NCBI GenBank assembly: GCA_048938105.1
Contig: JBHLMN010000016.1
Location: 83,199 to 147,198, forward strand
From: Promethearchaeota archaeon
Lineage (GTDB): Archaea > Asgardarchaeota > Heimdallarchaeia > Hodarchaeales > Hodarchaeaceae
Direction of reading: 5' to 3'
Length of the DNA: 64,000 nucleotides
The position numbers were made by a program, and so were the translations under genes. The notes under the pieces are model-generated. The model worked only from the letters and a program-made list of their open reading frames with translations. It did not search any database and had not been told where the DNA came from. This document shows positions 5,816 through 60,191 of the stretch, in pieces (position 1 is the first letter of the stretch; each line of letters begins with the position of its first letter).

Positions 5816-5923
5816 TGGGCCCACCCGGATTTGAACCGGGGATCTCTCGGTTATCAGCATCGCCCGCTCTGATGAATACCCTTCAGAACGCCGAGCGCTT
5901 TAACCAGGCTAAGCCATGGGCCC
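5816..5923 (-). tRNA. tRNA-Ile(GAU) with 33-nt intron at 30/31 (5859-5891)
   Basis: Acceptor stem GGGCCCA/TGGGCCC; T-loop TTCAAAT; spliced anticodon arm CTCGG-CTGATAA-CCGAG; BHB with helix CGCT/GGCG and bulges CGG, ATG. Confidence 0.93.
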
Positions 5924-18645: not shown

Positions 18646-18753
18646 TGGTGGACCAGCCGAGACTCGAACTCGGGGGTTGCGGTCATCCAAGGGTGAACCC
18701 TATGGACACTCCGCCTTGCGAAGGCGGCGTGATACCAACTTCACCACTGGCCC
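18646..18753 (-). tRNA. tRNA-Ala(CGC) with 32-nt intron at 45/46 (18677-18708); CCA encoded
   Basis: G3:U70 pair; anticodon arm CCGCC-TTCGCAA-GGCGG; BHB-like helix GCGG/CCGC. Confidence 0.93.
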
Positions 18754-39465: not shown

Positions 39466-39591
39466 GGGCCTGTAGCTCAGTTTAGGGTGTTCAACATTCA
39501 CACTCTCTGAAATGGTTAGAGCGTCCGGCTCATAGAGCTCAAATGAGCTTGAGAAACCGGATGGTCGTGGGTTCAAATCCCCCCAGGCCCA
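39466..39591 (+). tRNA. tRNA(CAU), probably tRNA-Ile2 (elongator Met less likely), with introns at 17/17a (39483-39512) and 37/38 (39535-39555)
   Basis: Two perfect BHB motifs (TCAG/CTGA and CTCA/TGAG); Ile-type GGGCC acceptor; G1:C72 excludes initiator Met. Confidence 0.9.
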
Positions 39592-41889: not shown

Positions 41890-43434
41890 ATGGCCCACCA
41901 GCGAAAGACGTGGAAACGGTTTTTAAACATTATTCTATCTCGACTTCCTTCCTGCATCGAAAAATATTCACCTAAAGACCAAGTCCTTCTGATTGATTTT
42001 TTGGAGATCCTTCAACACTATGAAGAAGCTGACTTTAATAGAAATAAACTCTTTAATAGGATTAATAAATTCAATCAGAAATATTTTGGGTCTGATCAAT
42101 ATGAAAAAACTCCTTTTTTGTGGTTTGCTTACTCATATTATTCAAATGCAAACTTAATACTTAGTGTTGCAAGGTTCCATGCTGATGATTTTTATGAATT
42201 TTTGGTAAAACTCCTTCGTGATCACAATGAGATAAAAGGATGCTTCAAACTCATATGTGAAAATACTCCATTACTAGATCTCGCCTGGGAACAATTGCAA
42301 TATTTAAGTGCAAAACTAGTTCCCTTAACTTCTGATCATTTACACTGCCTTGAAACTATATATTCATATGTTACAGAGGCAGGGATTAACTCTCTTAATC
42401 AGAATCGATTGAAAGATGCAATTTCAAGTCGAACCAGAAGTATCAAAATTATTCAAGATTTTCCAGATCTTTTGACTCTTTTAGAAGCCCGCTGGAGATT
42501 ATTATTTTATCCTCCTGCATTTGAAATAGAAACACTTTACTTTCAGTTTCAAATTAATGAATCAATACCTTTTTTAGAGATTATTGATATTAAAAATGCG
42601 AAGAACACTACATTTTGCAGTAGTACAATTTTTAATGTAAGAGGACTTAAGAACACATACATAGGATTAATTGCAATTCCCTCCCAATTAATAGAAAGAC
42701 TGAAATCTTATCTTAAAATCTGTGAGCAAAAAGGAAAATTGATTCTAAAGGACATGTCTCAGATCATCAATATCCAGATGAGTTATTCATTATCCAATTA
42801 TAAAACTGATAAAGGATGGCATAACCTTACAGAGACGGAATGGAAACGGCTCTCTCGCCCAGTTAAAACTTCTCGCCCTCGAAAAAGACGAATAAAACCT
42901 TCATCTTTCTTTCTAACTTCTCCTTTTAATAATGATTTTAATTATCAACAACATCCTAAGGCTGATGAACTTCTCAGAATATATTGTAAATCTCAACGAA
43001 CTTTTACATACGGTGAGCTGCCTTTTGGTAATACAGGAAATCAATCCACATTGAGTTTCTCCAAGAAAGAGATAGGAGTTTTGAGAGATTTATTTGAGTC
43101 TAAAGTGCTTCAAGTGGATTTAGTTTTAAATAAACTAAATCAGGAGTTTTCATGGGATCTTTTTTGGATAAGAATTCCAAAATTAATACCTTTAGAACAG
43201 CTTTCTCGCATATTGGAGCTTCTACCTTGGACCAGAATATATTATACGAGGTCAGATATTCATTTATTGACCTTTCTGACATCGAAACTAGCCCAATGGA
43301 TGAGTAGTGATTTAGAATGGATAGTTATCCCAGTAATAAGTCTACATTATCCAATTACTCCTTCTTTAGACTGGTATGACCTTGAAACCAATCAATGGAT
43401 TACCCCTTATATGTTAAAATCACCATTGTATTAA
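41890..43434 (+). CDS. ~515-aa putative Lrp/AsnC-like (wHTH+RAM, internally duplicated) protein, paralogue 1
   Basis: Long ORF homologous to 58119-59663; SD GGTGAG places the start at ATG 41890; the fold call is inference. Confidence 0.75.
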   Translation: MAHQRKTWKRFLNIILSRLPSCIEKYSPKDQVLLIDFLEILQHYEEADFNRNKLFNRINKFNQKYFGSDQYEKTPFLWFAYSYYSNANLILSVARFHADDFYEFLVKLLRDHNEIKGCFKLICENTPLLDLAWEQLQYLSAKLVPLTSDHLHCLETIYSYVTEAGINSLNQNRLKDAISSRTRSIKIIQDFPDLLTLLEARWRLLFYPPAFEIETLYFQFQINESIPFLEIIDIKNAKNTTFCSSTIFNVRGLKNTYIGLIAIPSQLIERLKSYLKICEQKGKLILKDMSQIINIQMSYSLSNYKTDKGWHNLTETEWKRLSRPVKTSRPRKRRIKPSSFFLTSPFNNDFNYQQHPKADELLRIYCKSQRTFTYGELPFGNTGNQSTLSFSKKEIGVLRDLFESKVLQVDLVLNKLNQEFSWDLFWIRIPKLIPLEQLSRILELLPWTRIYYTRSDIHLLTFLTSKLAQWMSSDLEWIVIPVISLHYPITPSLDWYDLETNQWITPYMLKSPLY

Positions 43435-43537: not shown

Positions 43538-43573
43538 TTATGGAAAAGGAGGAGTCGTACCTGGGGGCATCAT
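43538..43573 (-). CDS. Micropeptide MMPPGTTPPFP
   Basis: SD GAGGT 4-7 nt upstream; downstream hairpin and U-tract; positional homologue at 59773-59811. Confidence 0.55.
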   Translation of the reverse strand: MMPPGTTPPFP

Positions 43574-44021: not shown

Positions 44022-46169
44022 CTATTTGATTGGATCAAAAACTAAATTCTGATAGGAATCGTGTAATCTTTTTTGTAAAGGAAGATTCTGGAGTTTATCT
44101 TGGTTCATAAGGGATTGCAATTCGACTGAAAAATTATTTGTCTTTAGGAGAGAAATTTGACCATTAATCGAAATGATACAACGTCGTTCATCAGGTTTTG
44201 CTTTTAAAAGGTTGCGAAATTGTTCATACTCATTCTTGGTTAAGCCAAGTAAGTTGGATATGACATAAGGATCAAATTTTGTAAAGAAAACAGTCACAAC
44301 TCCTGCGTTAGTTAGTATAGGCTGTTTAACTATCGGATCAGTGCCAATAAAAATCATGGATATATCGTAAGCTCTTAAAGTCCAAGGGCCTTTAGCGATC
44401 ATCGTCTCTGAAGTCCTAGCTCTGGGACTCTTAGCTGGAATGAGTTTTTGAATCTCATCTAGGATGAAAATATTCTTAGGAAGAGTTTCTTCCTTGAAAG
44501 GTGATCGAAAGCTTCTAACGAAATAGTAAATATATTGCAGCACTACATTTAAGAAAATTTGCCTTCCACTTTGATCTTCCATGGATTCAAAGGCAGAAAG
44601 GTCAATAATAGCGTTATGTTCTAATAAATCAGATATTTCATAAGTTGTTTTGTGAACGGTGAAACATCTGCCCGTATTGCCAAATAAAAGCTTTTCAATG
44701 CAATTCATGATACCAGCAGTTGTATTTTCTAGATAGGCACCTTTCATTCCTAATTTATCAGGTATTTTAAGCCACTTGAGCAATGTTTGAAAATCACCTT
44801 GATCTTTTACTGTCTGAATAACCGCAAGGTGAAGGAGACGGCGCATTTGGGGTGAAACTGCATCCATGTCTTCAAAAATGTGTTCAAGTATAGATACTAC
44901 GAATTGGATATGATCATTTAGTGGTATAATAGATTCTCCTGCTTCATTTTTAGGTATTTGGAAAATATTTATACCCCAAGGAAATTCAGTTGAGCCAGGC
45001 TTCAAATATATGAAGGTATTACAAAAGGATTGGACTGGAGCTAAATATTCACCTTTTGGATCAAAAATGAGAAATCGAACATTCTTTTGATGAAATTCCT
45101 TAATTAATCCATAAATAAAACGGCTTTTTCCCTCACCGGTCATACCAAACACTACCATATGCCTACTGAGATCTTTACCATCAATCAACAAGGGAATATC
45201 CGAGGTTTTACCACTAACGATTGGAATGCCAAGATTAATAGCTCGTTGAGGTGAAGTTTCGCTTATACCCGTGGATAAGGTGTAATCTGTTTTGTTTGAA
45301 ACAAGACTATAACCTTCGTGAGAGAATTGTCTTTGAGGAGGAGTAATGAAGTTCATCAAAGAATATCCATCTAGGATAATTGGTGAAATCAATTTTCGTT
45401 TAGAACAGAGCCTCCTGAAAGAAGAAAAACGCCGCCAGAAAGTTGGATAAAATCGTACTTTGAATCCATTGGACATAAATAAGACAGATAAGCGATCAAG
45501 TTTGGATCGTAAAGATTCTTGGCTTTTTTCTACCACTAATATACGGGGTGAAAACTCAAAACAACCTGTTTCTTCCATAATGTTTATTTTTTGAGGATGA
45601 AAACGACGTTCTACTTTTCCTTGTTGGATATCAAATCGTACATGAACCATTCGATTATCTTGCTCATTTTGAGTTTGAGATTCTTTGGGAAGTTCTACAG
45701 ACTTGAAAACAAGCTGAATAAATGCAAATTGAGGAGAATCAGTTGAAATTTCAAGGATAGTGTCTATAAAACTCTCACTAGTCGTGAAATATCTGTCAGT
45801 TTTATCTTTTAATCCAAGAATTCCACCACAATAATATTTGGAGCCATCAGAACTCACCTGAAATTCAGTCTGTAGTAATTCTAGAAGAACATGGATAGGA
45901 GATTCACCTATCTTATGAAAATCAGGATGGAGTCCTAATGCGGCAGCAAACTGTTGGATAGTAGCTATCCCTTTTTCTCCCCCTTTCTTACGGAGGTGTC
46001 CATATTCTATAGGAACCATATTAATCCATACAGATTTGGGATCAAATACTGCATATTCCAAGGAAAAGGCATTCTTAGCATTCTGAAATACTTTGACGCT
46101 AGTTTTATCTACATTCAAAGGAATATAGCGGAAGTTGAAAGCTGGTACGGATTGAGTCATGAGAATCAC
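44022..46169 (-). CDS. HerA/VirB4/FtsK-family ATPase (DUF87)
   Basis: RHMVVFGMTGEGKS, LIFDPKGEY, Walker B FILDE. Confidence 0.85.
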   Translation of the reverse strand: MILMTQSVPAFNFRYIPLNVDKTSVKVFQNAKNAFSLEYAVFDPKSVWINMVPIEYGHLRKKGGEKGIATIQQFAAALGLHPDFHKIGESPIHVLLELLQTEFQVSSDGSKYYCGGILGLKDKTDRYFTTSESFIDTILEISTDSPQFAFIQLVFKSVELPKESQTQNEQDNRMVHVRFDIQQGKVERRFHPQKINIMEETGCFEFSPRILVVEKSQESLRSKLDRLSVLFMSNGFKVRFYPTFWRRFSSFRRLCSKRKLISPIILDGYSLMNFITPPQRQFSHEGYSLVSNKTDYTLSTGISETSPQRAINLGIPIVSGKTSDIPLLIDGKDLSRHMVVFGMTGEGKSRFIYGLIKEFHQKNVRFLIFDPKGEYLAPVQSFCNTFIYLKPGSTEFPWGINIFQIPKNEAGESIIPLNDHIQFVVSILEHIFEDMDAVSPQMRRLLHLAVIQTVKDQGDFQTLLKWLKIPDKLGMKGAYLENTTAGIMNCIEKLLFGNTGRCFTVHKTTYEISDLLEHNAIIDLSAFESMEDQSGRQIFLNVVLQYIYYFVRSFRSPFKEETLPKNIFILDEIQKLIPAKSPRARTSETMIAKGPWTLRAYDISMIFIGTDPIVKQPILTNAGVVTVFFTKFDPYVISNLLGLTKNEYEQFRNLLKAKPDERRCIISINGQISLLKTNNFSVELQSLMNQDKLQNLPLQKRLHDSYQNLVFDPIK

Positions 46170-57853: not shown

Positions 57854-58118
57854 TACCTAATTGTCTAACTTGCTTTTATACTCAAAATTAGGTTAGATTG
57901 ATAGAAAGAGGAATTATCTAGAAATCATGAATTTTTTTATATTCTATATAATAAATTTATATTTTCTTAAGAAAATATATATAAGGAAGAGAAATTAGAA
58001 AAATCAAAATTTATAAATAATATTTAAAATTCTTTCATTATGAAACTAATTACCTCGAAAATAAAGACAATTAGAGATTTTTTTTGAGGACACCATTCTT
58101 CTAAAGGTGAGTAGTGAG

Positions 58119-59663
58119 GTGGTTGATCGCCATAGAAGGCTAAAACAATTTATTAGGATAGTTGTAGATCAGCTCCCAGCATACATCAAAGAATATCATG
58201 TGTCAGATCGAAAACTCCTTGAAAAATTTCAAAGCACACTTCAACACTTTGAAGAAGCTGACTATGATAGAGATCGCCTCTCTAAACGGTTCACCGGCTA
58301 TCGAATGGGATATAGAGACACAGAAGAATATCTAAATATACAATTTTTGTGGTTTACAATCGAATACTTCAAGGACGCAAATCAACTACTAAGAGTAGCA
58401 GAGTTTCACGGGGGAGATTTTTATAGATATTTAGTGAAATGTCTGCGTGGTGTACCCAGTACACCAGGAGTATTTCAGTTAATTCAAAAAAAAACAGCAC
58501 TAACAGATTTATCATGGGAAAAGTTACAGAATTTAGCCTCCAAACTTACAATCCCACTAACAAGTGAAGAACTCCTTGTTATTAAGACAGTGTATTCATT
58601 CATCAAAGAGGAAAGAAAAAGAAAGAAAGGACTGAGTCTCCTCAATCCAGATCACTTACGAACTCATATTGTGAGACAAATAAGTCCAAGGTGGACATAT
58701 ACACGTCTTTCCCGTTTATTTGCACACATAGATGCCCGATGGGACTTATGGTTTTATCCTCCAGCTTTTGGGATGGAACGCTATTATTGCTATTTTCAAG
58801 TCGATGAATCCACCTCATTATTCGATATTATAAATTTCAAGGATCAGGCAAACACAGCCTTAAGTACCAGTGATGTGTATCAAATTAGAGGATATCACAA
58901 CACCTTTCTTGGGAGAATAGTAACTTCAACTCAAGAGATAAAACGATTACGATCATACCTCGAAGAACATGAAAACCTCATAGTACATCAATTATCAGAA
59001 ATTACCAATACTTATACAAGTTGGTCATTAACGCAATATCGAGCAGAAAGAGGCTGGGAAAGACTCTCTAATGATGAAATGAGACGCTTGATTCAACAAT
59101 TGAATACATCCCAGACATGTGAAGAAGAAGGAGATTTTTTCCTTTCACGAGAATGTGGAAAACAATGGTTTTACAAACAAATGTCTGATCCACACAAAAT
59201 AATTGCCCTTCTTTGCAAATATTTCAAATTTTATTCATTTAATGAGCTTCCATGGCGTACACCACGAGATCTGTTAAGGTTCACCCATGAAGAATTATAT
59301 CTTTTAAAGGAGTTATATCGTCAAAAAGTAGCTCATGTTGGGTTCCAAGTAAGACGATTAATAGATGAGTTCGCGATTGACACCTATTGGGTAAGTCTGC
59401 CAAAACGACCAATTGAACAGCTCTCCTGCCTACTAAGATATCTTCCTTTTTGTCAAATCTACTACACAAAAATACATGTCCATCTATGGACTCGATTACC
59501 TGCTGATTTTGCCCATCAGCTTAGAACCATTCCAGAATGGACAGTTGTTCCAATAATTCAAAACCATCAACCACAAAATCTTGAGGATGATTGGTATGAT
59601 CCTATAACATATGAATGGAAGACTCCCATATTGCTAGAGAATCATGGCGAGGATCTAGGATAA
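58119..59663 (+). CDS. ~515-aa putative Lrp/AsnC-like protein, paralogue 2
   Basis: Shares blocks with 41890-43434 (LQHxEEAD, VAxFHxxDFY, PLTS, ARWxLxFYPPAF, IYYT) and the same AAAGGTGAGTAGTGAG leader. Confidence 0.75.
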   Translation: MVDRHRRLKQFIRIVVDQLPAYIKEYHVSDRKLLEKFQSTLQHFEEADYDRDRLSKRFTGYRMGYRDTEEYLNIQFLWFTIEYFKDANQLLRVAEFHGGDFYRYLVKCLRGVPSTPGVFQLIQKKTALTDLSWEKLQNLASKLTIPLTSEELLVIKTVYSFIKEERKRKKGLSLLNPDHLRTHIVRQISPRWTYTRLSRLFAHIDARWDLWFYPPAFGMERYYCYFQVDESTSLFDIINFKDQANTALSTSDVYQIRGYHNTFLGRIVTSTQEIKRLRSYLEEHENLIVHQLSEITNTYTSWSLTQYRAERGWERLSNDEMRRLIQQLNTSQTCEEEGDFFLSRECGKQWFYKQMSDPHKIIALLCKYFKFYSFNELPWRTPRDLLRFTHEELYLLKELYRQKVAHVGFQVRRLIDEFAIDTYWVSLPKRPIEQLSCLLRYLPFCQIYYTKIHVHLWTRLPADFAHQLRTIPEWTVVPIIQNHQPQNLEDDWYDPITYEWKTPILLENHGEDLG

Positions 59664-59697
59664 TAAGAGTCAGAAAAACATAACATCGGAAAAGGAT

Positions 59698-59747
59698 AAA
59701 AAAAAGTGGGAGGAACGGAGAAATTTCGATGATATCGAAATTTCGCC
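59698..59747 (-). terminator. Perfect 11-bp hairpin plus U-tract ending the second micropeptide transcript
   Basis: GAAATTTCGAT-N3-ATCGAAATTTC at 59720-59744; T8 tract on the minus strand. Confidence 0.6.
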
Positions 59748-59772
59748 TTAATATCTTAATACTTTCACAAGT

Positions 59773-59811
59773 TTAATGGCCAGGTGGATTGCCATCATTA
59801 GGGGGGGACAC
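59773..59811 (-). CDS. Micropeptide (M)SPPNDGNPPGH, GTG start
   Basis: SD GAGGT 8 nt upstream; same position and PP..PP pattern as 43538-43573. Confidence 0.5.
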   Translation of the reverse strand: MSPPNDGNPPGH

Positions 59812-60191
59812 TTCATTCAACCTCTTACTTCTCTTCTCCTACTCCTGTTTTAACAATCTAATATTTTTTGAAAATATAACAAGCGTTTTTACCTTTAAAA
59901 ATACCCAAAAAATTTCTAGAGAAATTTTGAAAGGCATGGTTTATTACGCTCATACCTAGATTAATATATTTCTATAAAAACACCCCAAAAATCCCCCACC
60001 CCTTGATAAGATAATAATAAGCACCCTAGTTTATTCTATCTTAGTTACTTGTTAGTAAATTTTCCAAGTCATTATAGGGTGATAAAGAACTACCGCTCTA
60101 CTACTAACCCAGAGGATGACTATCGTATGAAGAACTCCACAATTCGAATTGATAATCGAGATTACTTGTATGGGAAAAGTGCTGAAACACT

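Follow-up and report, generated by a model that had tools for sequence, protein, structure and literature searches.

Tail-to-tail pairing of a double Lrp/AsnC-like protein with a putative leaderless Pro-Pro micropeptide in a genus of Hodarchaeales

Two copies of a compact two-gene module lie in the window analyzed here, a 64,000-nucleotide (nt) stretch of a Promethearchaeota archaeon genome (Hodarchaeales; assembly GCA_048938105.1, contig JBHLMN010000016.1, positions 83,199 to 147,198). Each copy consists of a gene for a 514-amino-acid (aa) protein and, tail to tail with it on the minus strand, a tiny gene that starts with a Met-(x)-Pro-Pro motif. We compared copy 2 with a family sample of 63 loci from 20 genomes of the same genus. 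Copy 2 appears to be a complete module, in which a 39-nt gene with its own promoter-like boxes (resembling a B recognition element and TATA box, BRE/TATA), Shine-Dalgarno (SD) sequence and T-run would be translated as the leaderless peptide MSPPNDGNPPGH, the putative cognate ligand of the protein encoded beside it. Our favored explanation, to which we give slightly less than an even chance, is that this 12-residue peptide is synthesized in its final form and binds the 514-aa protein encoded next to it, changing the activity of that protein. We found no paper describing the 514-aa protein/Met-Pro-Pro micropeptide pair, which looks undescribed.

The convergent micropeptide gene and its reading frame

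The first-pass annotation, made from the letters alone, had described copy 2 as a second regulator/micropeptide module with a different peptide. Comparison bears out a second, diverged protein/micropeptide module: the copy 1 and copy 2 proteins are 36% identical across 509 aa, and the module recurs about 46 times in the 20 genomes. The annotation had also noted that an identical leader precedes both large genes and that their open reading frames (ORFs) are equally long. The leader is indeed an exact 16-mer, AAAGGTGAGTAGTGAG, with just two occurrences in the window (41874 and 58103; 0.04 expected), each directly before a 514-aa gene, and none in the rest of the 5.85-Mb genome. Variants of the form aGGTGAGnAGTGAG-GTG are present at related loci, and the leader is therefore a conserved translation-initiation region rather than a window-specific sequence. 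Both ORFs span 518 aa when counted from the GTG within the leader and 514 aa from the aligned starts (ATG 41890 in copy 1, GTG 58119 in copy 2). Copy 2 aligns over its full length with more than 60 family members (E 1e-57 to 1e-122).

Downstream of both large genes, the minus strand carries the same elements in the same order, i.e., promoter-like boxes, the SD sequence GAGGT, the tiny ORF, a hairpin, a CCTCC-rich pyrimidine tract and a T-run that stops 35-40 nt short of the large gene's stop codon. The hairpin sequences are unrelated between the copies, each 3' untranslated region (3'UTR) has a folding z of about -3, and the peptides differ, just as had been noted from the window (the same layout with a new hairpin and a new peptide). 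A convergent M-x(0-2)-P-P ORF of 10-16 codons behind an SD sequence is found at 46 of the 63 family loci and is followed by a T-run at 43 of these 46. In copy 2, the ORF encoding MSPPNDGNPPGH has 12 codons and no hydrophobic leader, and 109 nt separate its end from the partner gene's stop codon.

The annotation had cautioned that an ATG close to the SD sequence opens an alternative 22-aa frame, which left the translated frame uncertain. That frame exists, and alignment of the related downstream regions shows that it is the GTG/Pro-Pro frame that is conserved, at 46 loci of 20 genomes. The GTG at 59811 aligns with the start codons of the other family loci, and GTG also starts the MSPP peptides of L007 and L011. 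SD-to-start spacing across the family is 8 nt at 21 of 38 loci and 7 nt at 7, with an observed range of 4-11 nt; the copy 2 GTG lies 8 nt from its SD sequence (the family mode), while the ATG at 59816 lies only 3 nt away and falls outside the family range. ORFs of at least 15 aa in an alternative frame occur at only 12 of 46 loci, where the frames differ and the sequences are unlike. By this comparison, the conserved family frame in copy 2 is the GTG frame encoding MSPPNDGNPPGH, and the 22-aa frame is not conserved. It is therefore a very remote prospect that the copy 2 product is the hydrophobic 22-aa peptide MKCPPLMMAIHLAIKLVKVLRY, or a non-coding antisense RNA with no peptide at all. In favor of these readings, ATG outranks GTG as a start codon and here comes first, and the transcript folds with a z of -2.0; against them stand the spacing, the lack of a similar alternative-frame peptide at any related locus, the other GTG-started MSPP peptides and the synonymous variation described below, which favors the Pro-Pro frame.

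We further considered a frameshift at the C7 run (59799-59805) as an explanation of the 22-aa frame, and discarded it as needless because the GTG frame reads C7 as Pro-Pro. Plus-strand mini-ORFs also follow the purine tract (MISKFRLNILILSQV for copy 2 and MDSISPIWLK for copy 1), and nothing comparable exists at the other loci inspected by eye. A longer precursor reads in frame at L008 (41 aa) and out of frame at L064, whose upstream region is closely similar. DNA contigs from two studies are identical across their overlap with the copy 2 region and are therefore uninformative on the frame.

Several features of the small ORF argue that it is translated. Across loci, the first Pro codon is CCC (31), CCT (9), CCA (5) or CCG (1) and the second is CCA (23), CCT (19) or CCC (4), so that both vary at the third position only. 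Counted from Pro-Pro to its end, the peptide measures 9-10 residues at 40 of 46 loci, and the tails are nearly free of hydrophobic residues, with Gly at 27%, Pro at 21%, Asp at 8% and Asn at 7%. The peptide genes of L011 and L012 carry five synonymous differences (including Ser TCC/AGT), and the ORFs of L008 and L031 are 100% identical where the 40 nt upstream are 65% identical. Throughout the 5.85-Mb genome, only two ORFs combine an SD sequence, an M(x)PP start and a G/P-type tail, and both adjoin the 514-aa genes. Together, the synonymous Pro codons, constant length, tail composition and genome-wide specificity argue that the small ORF is a translated, selected frame specifically tied to the large gene. 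If so, genes of 10-13 codons, some of them GTG-started, are real and systematically missed in genome annotation.

Some loci depart from this layout. At L055 (G013:C70), MMPPRDGPDSGL is preceded at a distance of ~120 nt by a second, tandem mini-ORF of the same orientation, MMAPNDHGNDGK, with Ala-Pro in place of Pro-Pro. Two peptides may be encoded in some cassettes. At L045 (G016:C88) and L047 (G001:C2), the ORFs MPPEEPTSQ and MPPNEPTGQ stand behind the SD sequence GGAGGT on the strand of the large gene, ~400 nt downstream of it, and the stretch between the large gene and the peptide gene is conserved. At L005 (G019:C63), no peptide unit follows the large gene, and the contig runs on into G+C-rich sequence that is rRNA-like by eye; the two parts were probably joined in assembly at this contig end.

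Predicted fold of the large protein and a sister family with exported peptides

The 514-aa family is present in all 20 genomes of one Hodarchaeales genus, with one weak match among 39 genomes of other relatives. A profile search of 1.84 billion representatives returned only 189 proteins, all with the ~510-aa architecture or fragments of it, and metagenome scans with the protein and with a degenerate peptide-coding pattern gave no matches. Neither copy matched a Pfam family at E<0.01 (including any TPR or Rgg family), nor did any of 25 members at E<1; PF01037 and PF13404 had no sequence match in the family. A PDB sequence search gave no match, and neither did an ESM Atlas search with the N-terminal bundle defined below.

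An AlphaFold2 model of copy 2 built on a 25-sequence alignment reached a predicted local distance difference test score (pLDDT) of 91.5 and a predicted template modeling score (pTM) of 0.88. Residues 149-514 of the model match the fused siroheme decarboxylase NirDL (4ch7) with Z 14.3 and a root-mean-square deviation of 4.6 over 276 residues at 10% identity; the match to 4czc has Z 13.8, Foldseek gives E 9.5e-5 for NirDL, and after NirDL the scores drop to Z ~7-8. The model thus predicts a double Lrp/AsnC-like fold, with winged helix-turn-helix (HTH) and paired RAM (ferredoxin-like) units in one chain. NirDL/AhbAB (4ch7, 4czc; PMC4835899) likewise carries two HTH + RAM units in a single chain. 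Siroheme decarboxylase is a member of the AsnC family and holds its ligand inside a barrel of two ferredoxin-like domains (PMC4835899). In the Lrp/AsnC (FFRP) superfamily at large, ligands bind between or inside paired RAM domains. The 514-aa family differs from both Lrp/AsnC proteins and NirDL by an extra, conserved helical bundle of 140 residues (residues 1-140 of the model), which has no informative match and holds many invariant, mostly aromatic residues (F76, W78, Y102, W133 and others). The neighboring genes examined include no nir/ahb genes. The first-pass label of "regulator" is compatible with the double Lrp/AsnC-like fold; regulation itself is read from that fold, and the closest structure is an enzyme.

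A second family in the same genus resembles this one. At locus L065 (G000:C14:13743-15500), a gene for a 496-aa protein (C14:13743-15233) lies head-to-head with a gene for a 52-aa pre-peptide consisting of a hydrophobic leader and a C-terminal ADPNGVPPGPKP. We collected 15 homologues of the 496-aa protein, and genomes of the genus carry as many as 9 members of this ~490-aa family. A model of it (pLDDT 83) matches NirDL with Z 13.6 over residues 155-487; the strands and helices of its first Lrp unit fall at nearly the same residue numbers as in the 514-aa model, and genuine Lrp/AsnC regulators appear among the matches of its second unit (Z 7-7.7). Profile-profile alignment of the two families with hhalign was collinear and not significant (E 0.057, probability ~1%). 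The partner pre-peptides of the ~490-aa family end in ADPNGVPPGPKP, QAPPISPPGGGNMG, TAPPGDNAGGA and ADPELPPPPPPGH, which resemble the leaderless peptides MEIPPISPPNGRE and MMPPGDRGNGK. The sister cassettes thus share the genus, a similar protein size and architecture, and tails of the same composition and length; they differ in having a 35-40-residue signal or transmembrane leader and a head-to-head arrangement, whereas the 514-aa module is leaderless and tail-to-tail. Since exported tails resemble leaderless peptides, the Pro-rich 10-14-mer tail itself appears to be the functional product and, by analogy, the double-Lrp protein appears to be the partner of a Pro-rich peptide in both systems.

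Among published systems, the nearest analogue in layout is RopB with its leaderless communication peptides (LCPs, e.g., SIP) of Firmicutes (PMC10518010). In both, a tiny ORF (8-9 codons there, 10-13 here) without a secretion signal or propeptide adjoins a receptor gene, and many receptor-peptide pairs have distinct peptide "codes"; the receptor is cytosolic there and putative here. The RopB receptor is of the TPR-type RRNPP/Rgg class, in contrast to the double Lrp/AsnC-like fold predicted here, and LCPs are hydrophobic (MWLILLFL), whereas the Hodarchaeales peptides are rich in Pro, Gly and Asp with almost no hydrophobic residues. The RopB genes are bacterial and mostly divergent, while the Hodarchaeales genes are archaeal and convergent; secretion and re-import have been demonstrated for LCPs and are hypothetical for the Hodarchaeales peptides. 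What the module appears to share with LCPs, i.e., a peptide encoded at its final length beside its partner, is a resemblance of layout only. Rgg/SHP and PrgX/prgQ (RRNPP) also place a regulator gene next to a short peptide gene. On pCF10, overlapping opposing transcripts add antisense control, and the convergent Hodarchaeales layout would permit the same. There is no homology to these systems, the 514-aa protein has a helical bundle and two HTH/ferredoxin-like units instead of a TPR domain, and the Hodarchaeales peptides are not processed from a longer hydrophobic precursor.

Divergence of the pairs and possible actions of the peptide

We next consider how peptides vary with their proteins. 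A maximum-likelihood tree pairs copy 2 with L004/L005 as sisters (Shimodaira-Hasegawa-like approximate likelihood ratio 96) and copy 1 with L009, whose peptide is MMPPTPTPPKP; the L004 peptide is MNPPTNPPPGVGSPKE. Where proteins are close, their peptides are alike or even the same (MMPPKDGGTGNN twice; MNPPQTGGGSPK and MNPPQDGGGSPK; MPPKDPPGIN and MPPKDPGGIN). Tail dissimilarity is 0.48 at tree distances below 0.5, 0.70 at 0.5-1.0 and ~0.8 beyond. Cassettes within a genome share no tail (maximum identity 62% over 63 pairs), and six pairs of cassettes from different genomes reach at least 70% tail identity. The ratio of nonsynonymous to synonymous differences per site (pN/pS) is ~0.67 on seven close pairs, compatible with relaxed constraint.

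The distinct tails within genomes fit orthogonal pairs. Old paralogy with weak constraint would give the same pattern, and diversifying selection is therefore not demonstrated. Of the earlier suggestion of diversifying receptor-ligand specificity, what holds is that the peptides of paralogues differ; neither the correlation of protein and peptide distances (given below) nor the pN/pS bears out diversification.

We propose the following mechanism for binding of MSPPNDGNPPGH to its neighbor. The 514-aa protein would form a built-in pseudo-dimer, a single chain in which two Lrp/AsnC-like units stand behind the aromatic-rich helical bundle. The invariant Met-(x)-Pro-Pro head would serve as a common anchor read by conserved protein residues, and the fast-evolving Gly/Pro/Asp/Asn tail would be read by variable residues and give each paralogue its own partner. 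Binding would switch the output of the protein, most likely DNA binding, and the peptide might even act between cells. Candidate DNA targets are the GGGTG-TTTATAA boxes before the peptide gene (in copy 2 at 60032, 59991 and 59912, with a degenerate one at 59863). A broader version, which we regard as possible and somewhat unlikely, is that Hodarchaeales run a set of orthogonal peptide-receptor circuits on the double Lrp/AsnC scaffold, with peptides made leaderless or from exported precursors and a receptor paralogue for each.

Several observations weigh against binding and regulation by the peptide. The closest solved structure is an enzyme (NirDL, a fused Lrp/AsnC-like siroheme decarboxylase), and no single-unit Lrp/AsnC regulator is among the best 50 matches of the copy 2 model. 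No stretch of the protein varies more than the predicted recognition-helix region (residues 181-195). A basic loop, K-x-x-P-R-K-R-R, is found near residue 335 in most family members (mean net charge +3.5); copy 2 lacks it and has the acidic SQTCEEEGD (-4; residues 328-346, window 59119-59145), and its close orthologue P0006 (66% identical) is likewise acidic, with PEGEEEGDE replacing the basic loop. The proximal promoter box of copy 2 is degenerate. Protein and peptide distances are not significantly correlated (rho 0.07, p 0.16, Mantel test); the overall correlation fails because tail similarity saturates quickly with distance. For residue-level co-variation, the ~43 pairs are non-independent and their tails saturated. 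Finally, two syntenic subgroups (L016/L020/L044/L050 and L052/L054/L056/L057/L058) have no peptide gene, and these could be peptide-independent members or members served in trans. In one of them the large gene is followed by an ORF starting MVNPQNSPKYPL (AMP-ligase-like, at a guess), and in the other by a small gene starting MVRLIFKNRTFSEG.

Translation of the ORF might matter where the peptide itself does not, i.e., the ORF may be a cis-acting translational sensor. Pro, Gly and Asp motifs depend on EF-P/eIF5A. Met-Pro-Pro followed by Gly, Asp, Asn and Pro would be a run of poor peptidyl-transfer substrates that stalls ribosomes unless aIF5A or charged tRNA-Pro/Gly is plentiful. A stalled ribosome would change how the small RNA terminates or how stable it is, and hence its antisense interplay with the convergent large-gene mRNA. 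A sensor would suit the fact that nothing but the initial M-(x)-P-P is invariant, with a tail that keeps composition and length and not sequence, as well as the pN/pS and the hairpin and T-run downstream of the ORF. The plus strand has no T5 run from the large-gene stop codon to the far side of the small gene, and the convergent transcripts therefore probably overlap. The geometry expected of an attenuator is variable, however, since the T-run begins anywhere from 1 to 67 nt past the stop codon of the small ORF and a fold clearly better than that of shuffled sequences (z below -2) is seen in just 11 of 30 3'UTRs. Locus-specific pairing of the 5' and 3' parts that would mask the SD sequence is likewise unsupported (own pairing -9.2, cross -9.1 and shuffled -8.9 kcal/mol; permutation p 0.43), and the complementarity of the pyrimidine tract with the purine-rich 5' end is generic to purine and pyrimidine tracts. 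Moreover, the only possible downstream target of control is the partner gene's 3' end, orthologues retain identical or near-identical tails, and the exported relatives carry a like tail at the C-terminus of a 50-aa pre-peptide, where start-proximal stalling is impossible. We thus consider a sensor unlikely.

The match to NirDL suggests a different relationship, in which the 514-aa protein is a Lrp-fold enzyme that modifies, cyclizes or conjugates the adjacent peptide, a minimal pair akin to those making ribosomally synthesized and post-translationally modified peptides. The best structural match is an enzyme, the most conserved part is the N-terminal bundle with invariant Tyr, Arg, Trp, His, Glu and Gln, and each protein has one dedicated peptide. 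NirDL identity is only 10%, however, and the related ~490-aa family matches genuine Lrp/AsnC regulators (see above). The peptide lacks a leader or recognition sequence and has no conserved modifiable residue besides Pro-Pro, and no conserved transporter, protease or further tailoring gene adjoins the pair. An enzyme-substrate pair is accordingly improbable in our estimate.

The distribution of the family brings to mind a selfish or conflict module, i.e., an addiction, defense or self-recognition cassette in which the peptide is antidote or trigger and the protein is effector. The family is genus-restricted and fast-diverging, with 1-10 copies per genome that are often clustered; the best between-species identity of copy 2 is 42%, neighbor genes vary between paralogues, and the copy 1 clade adjoins a HerA/FtsK-like ATPase. 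Against this, neither an integrase nor a transposase adjoins the pairs examined, some subgroups are syntenic, housekeeping-like loci, and Pfam shows no nuclease, toxin or defense domain (PADLOC and PHROGs were not searched). We rate a conflict module as highly improbable.

Of these readings, we thus retain a peptide that binds and switches its neighboring protein. Gene-encoded peptide ligands of intracellular regulators are known from Bacillota and their phages. In the literature, we found no paper on a gene-encoded peptide ligand in Archaea, or on one read by an Lrp/AsnC-type protein; to our knowledge, every effector of Lrp/AsnC proteins is an amino acid or a tetrapyrrole, and none is a peptide encoded by a gene. 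If the broader version is true, its circuits would be the first gene-encoded peptide signaling or regulatory system in Archaea, evolved independently of the bacterial RRNPP systems, in an order that ranks with the closest archaeal kin of eukaryotes. Binding of the peptide would also widen the known ligands of the Lrp/AsnC fold, which are amino acids, to include peptides. Synthetic 12-residue peptides and soluble ~500-aa proteins make a cheap and concrete test set, which could show whether archaea near the eukaryotic stem control genes by peptide codes.

Promoter-like boxes, feature coordinates and neighboring genes

Many loci have three to four BRE/TATA-like boxes of consensus TTTTGGGGTGTTTATAAAGG (GGGTG-TTTATAA) at about -225, -185, -105 and -50 from the peptide start. 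Repeated boxes at conserved distances are seen in the window (59844-60032, minus strand) and at L004, L031, L036, L008, L064, L003 and L025, and a proximal box lies at -53 in most loci. Such boxes are scarce genome-wide, where ~35 sites reach at least 17 bits, some at promoter distance before ordinary genes, and they may simply be strong promoters. The GGGTG-TTTATAA box is probably a strong BRE/TATA consensus multiplied here rather than a cassette-only operator. The interval from the -105 to the -50 box holds a block common to several loci, made up of ATGGCGA, a hairpin-like stretch and GGAATTTTT; it may represent an additional short transcript or a landing pad for a regulator. A 31-aa ORF, MSVINHAFQNFSRNFLGIFKGKNACYIFKKY (59858-59953, minus strand), begins behind the -180 box and crosses the -101 box; it is probably no gene because the sister locus L004 keeps only 4 codons there.

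Table 1 Coordinates of copy 2 features in the window, with the copy 1 genes for comparison
Feature	Position	Strand	Basis or remark
Copy 1, 514-aa protein	41890..43434	+	Translation; alignment to copy 2
Copy 1 micropeptide gene, MMPPGTTPPFP	43538..43573	-	Family ORF survey
Leader of copy 2 large gene	58103..58118	+	SD-like GGTGAG, then spacer AGTGAG, then GTG 58119
Copy 2, 514-aa protein	58119..59663	+	Translation; predicted helical bundle ~1-140 and two Lrp/AsnC-like HTH+RAM units ~149-514
T8 run, probable transcription end of peptide gene	59698..59705	-	35 nt from large-gene stop codon
Pyrimidine tract CTCCGTTCCTCCCAC preceding T-run	59706..59720	-	Like the CCTCC-rich tracts at most loci
Hairpin, 11-bp stem CGAAAUUUCGA, 3'UTR	59717..59747	-	Fold; 3'UTR z -3.0
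Alternative 22-aa ATG frame MKCPPLMMAIHLAIKLVKVLRY (MKCPPLMM...)	59748..59816	-	Judged not the gene
Copy 2 micropeptide gene, GTG start, TAA stop	59773..59811	-	39 nt; (M)SPPNDGNPPGH = MSPPNDGNPPGH, 12 residues
SD sequence GAGGT, peptide gene	59820..59824	-	GAGGT or near variant 6-8 nt from start at most loci
Proximal box, degenerate, TATTAGATTGTTAAAACAGG	59844..59863	-	About -50; aligns with consensus box TAGGGTGTTAATAAGG of sister locus L004
Promoter-like box TTTTTTGGGTATTTTTAAAGGTAA, -101	59889..59912	-	Position weight matrix (PWM) score 20.5
Promoter-like box TTTTTGGGGTGTTTTTATAGAAAT, -180	59968..59991	-	PWM score 22.5
Promoter-like box ACTAGGGTGCTTATTATT, -221	60009..60032	-	PWM score 11.6; conserved at sister locus L004

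Upstream of the copy 1 peptide gene and on the same strand lies a gene for a 715-aa HerA/FtsK-like ATPase (DUF87; 44022-46169, minus strand), and such a neighbor is also present at seven more loci of the copy 1 clade (L003, L007, L011, L012 and L024-L026). The window further holds tRNA genes with introns, 105-126 nt in length (5816-5923, 18649-18753 and 39466-39591), consistent with an archaeal genome.

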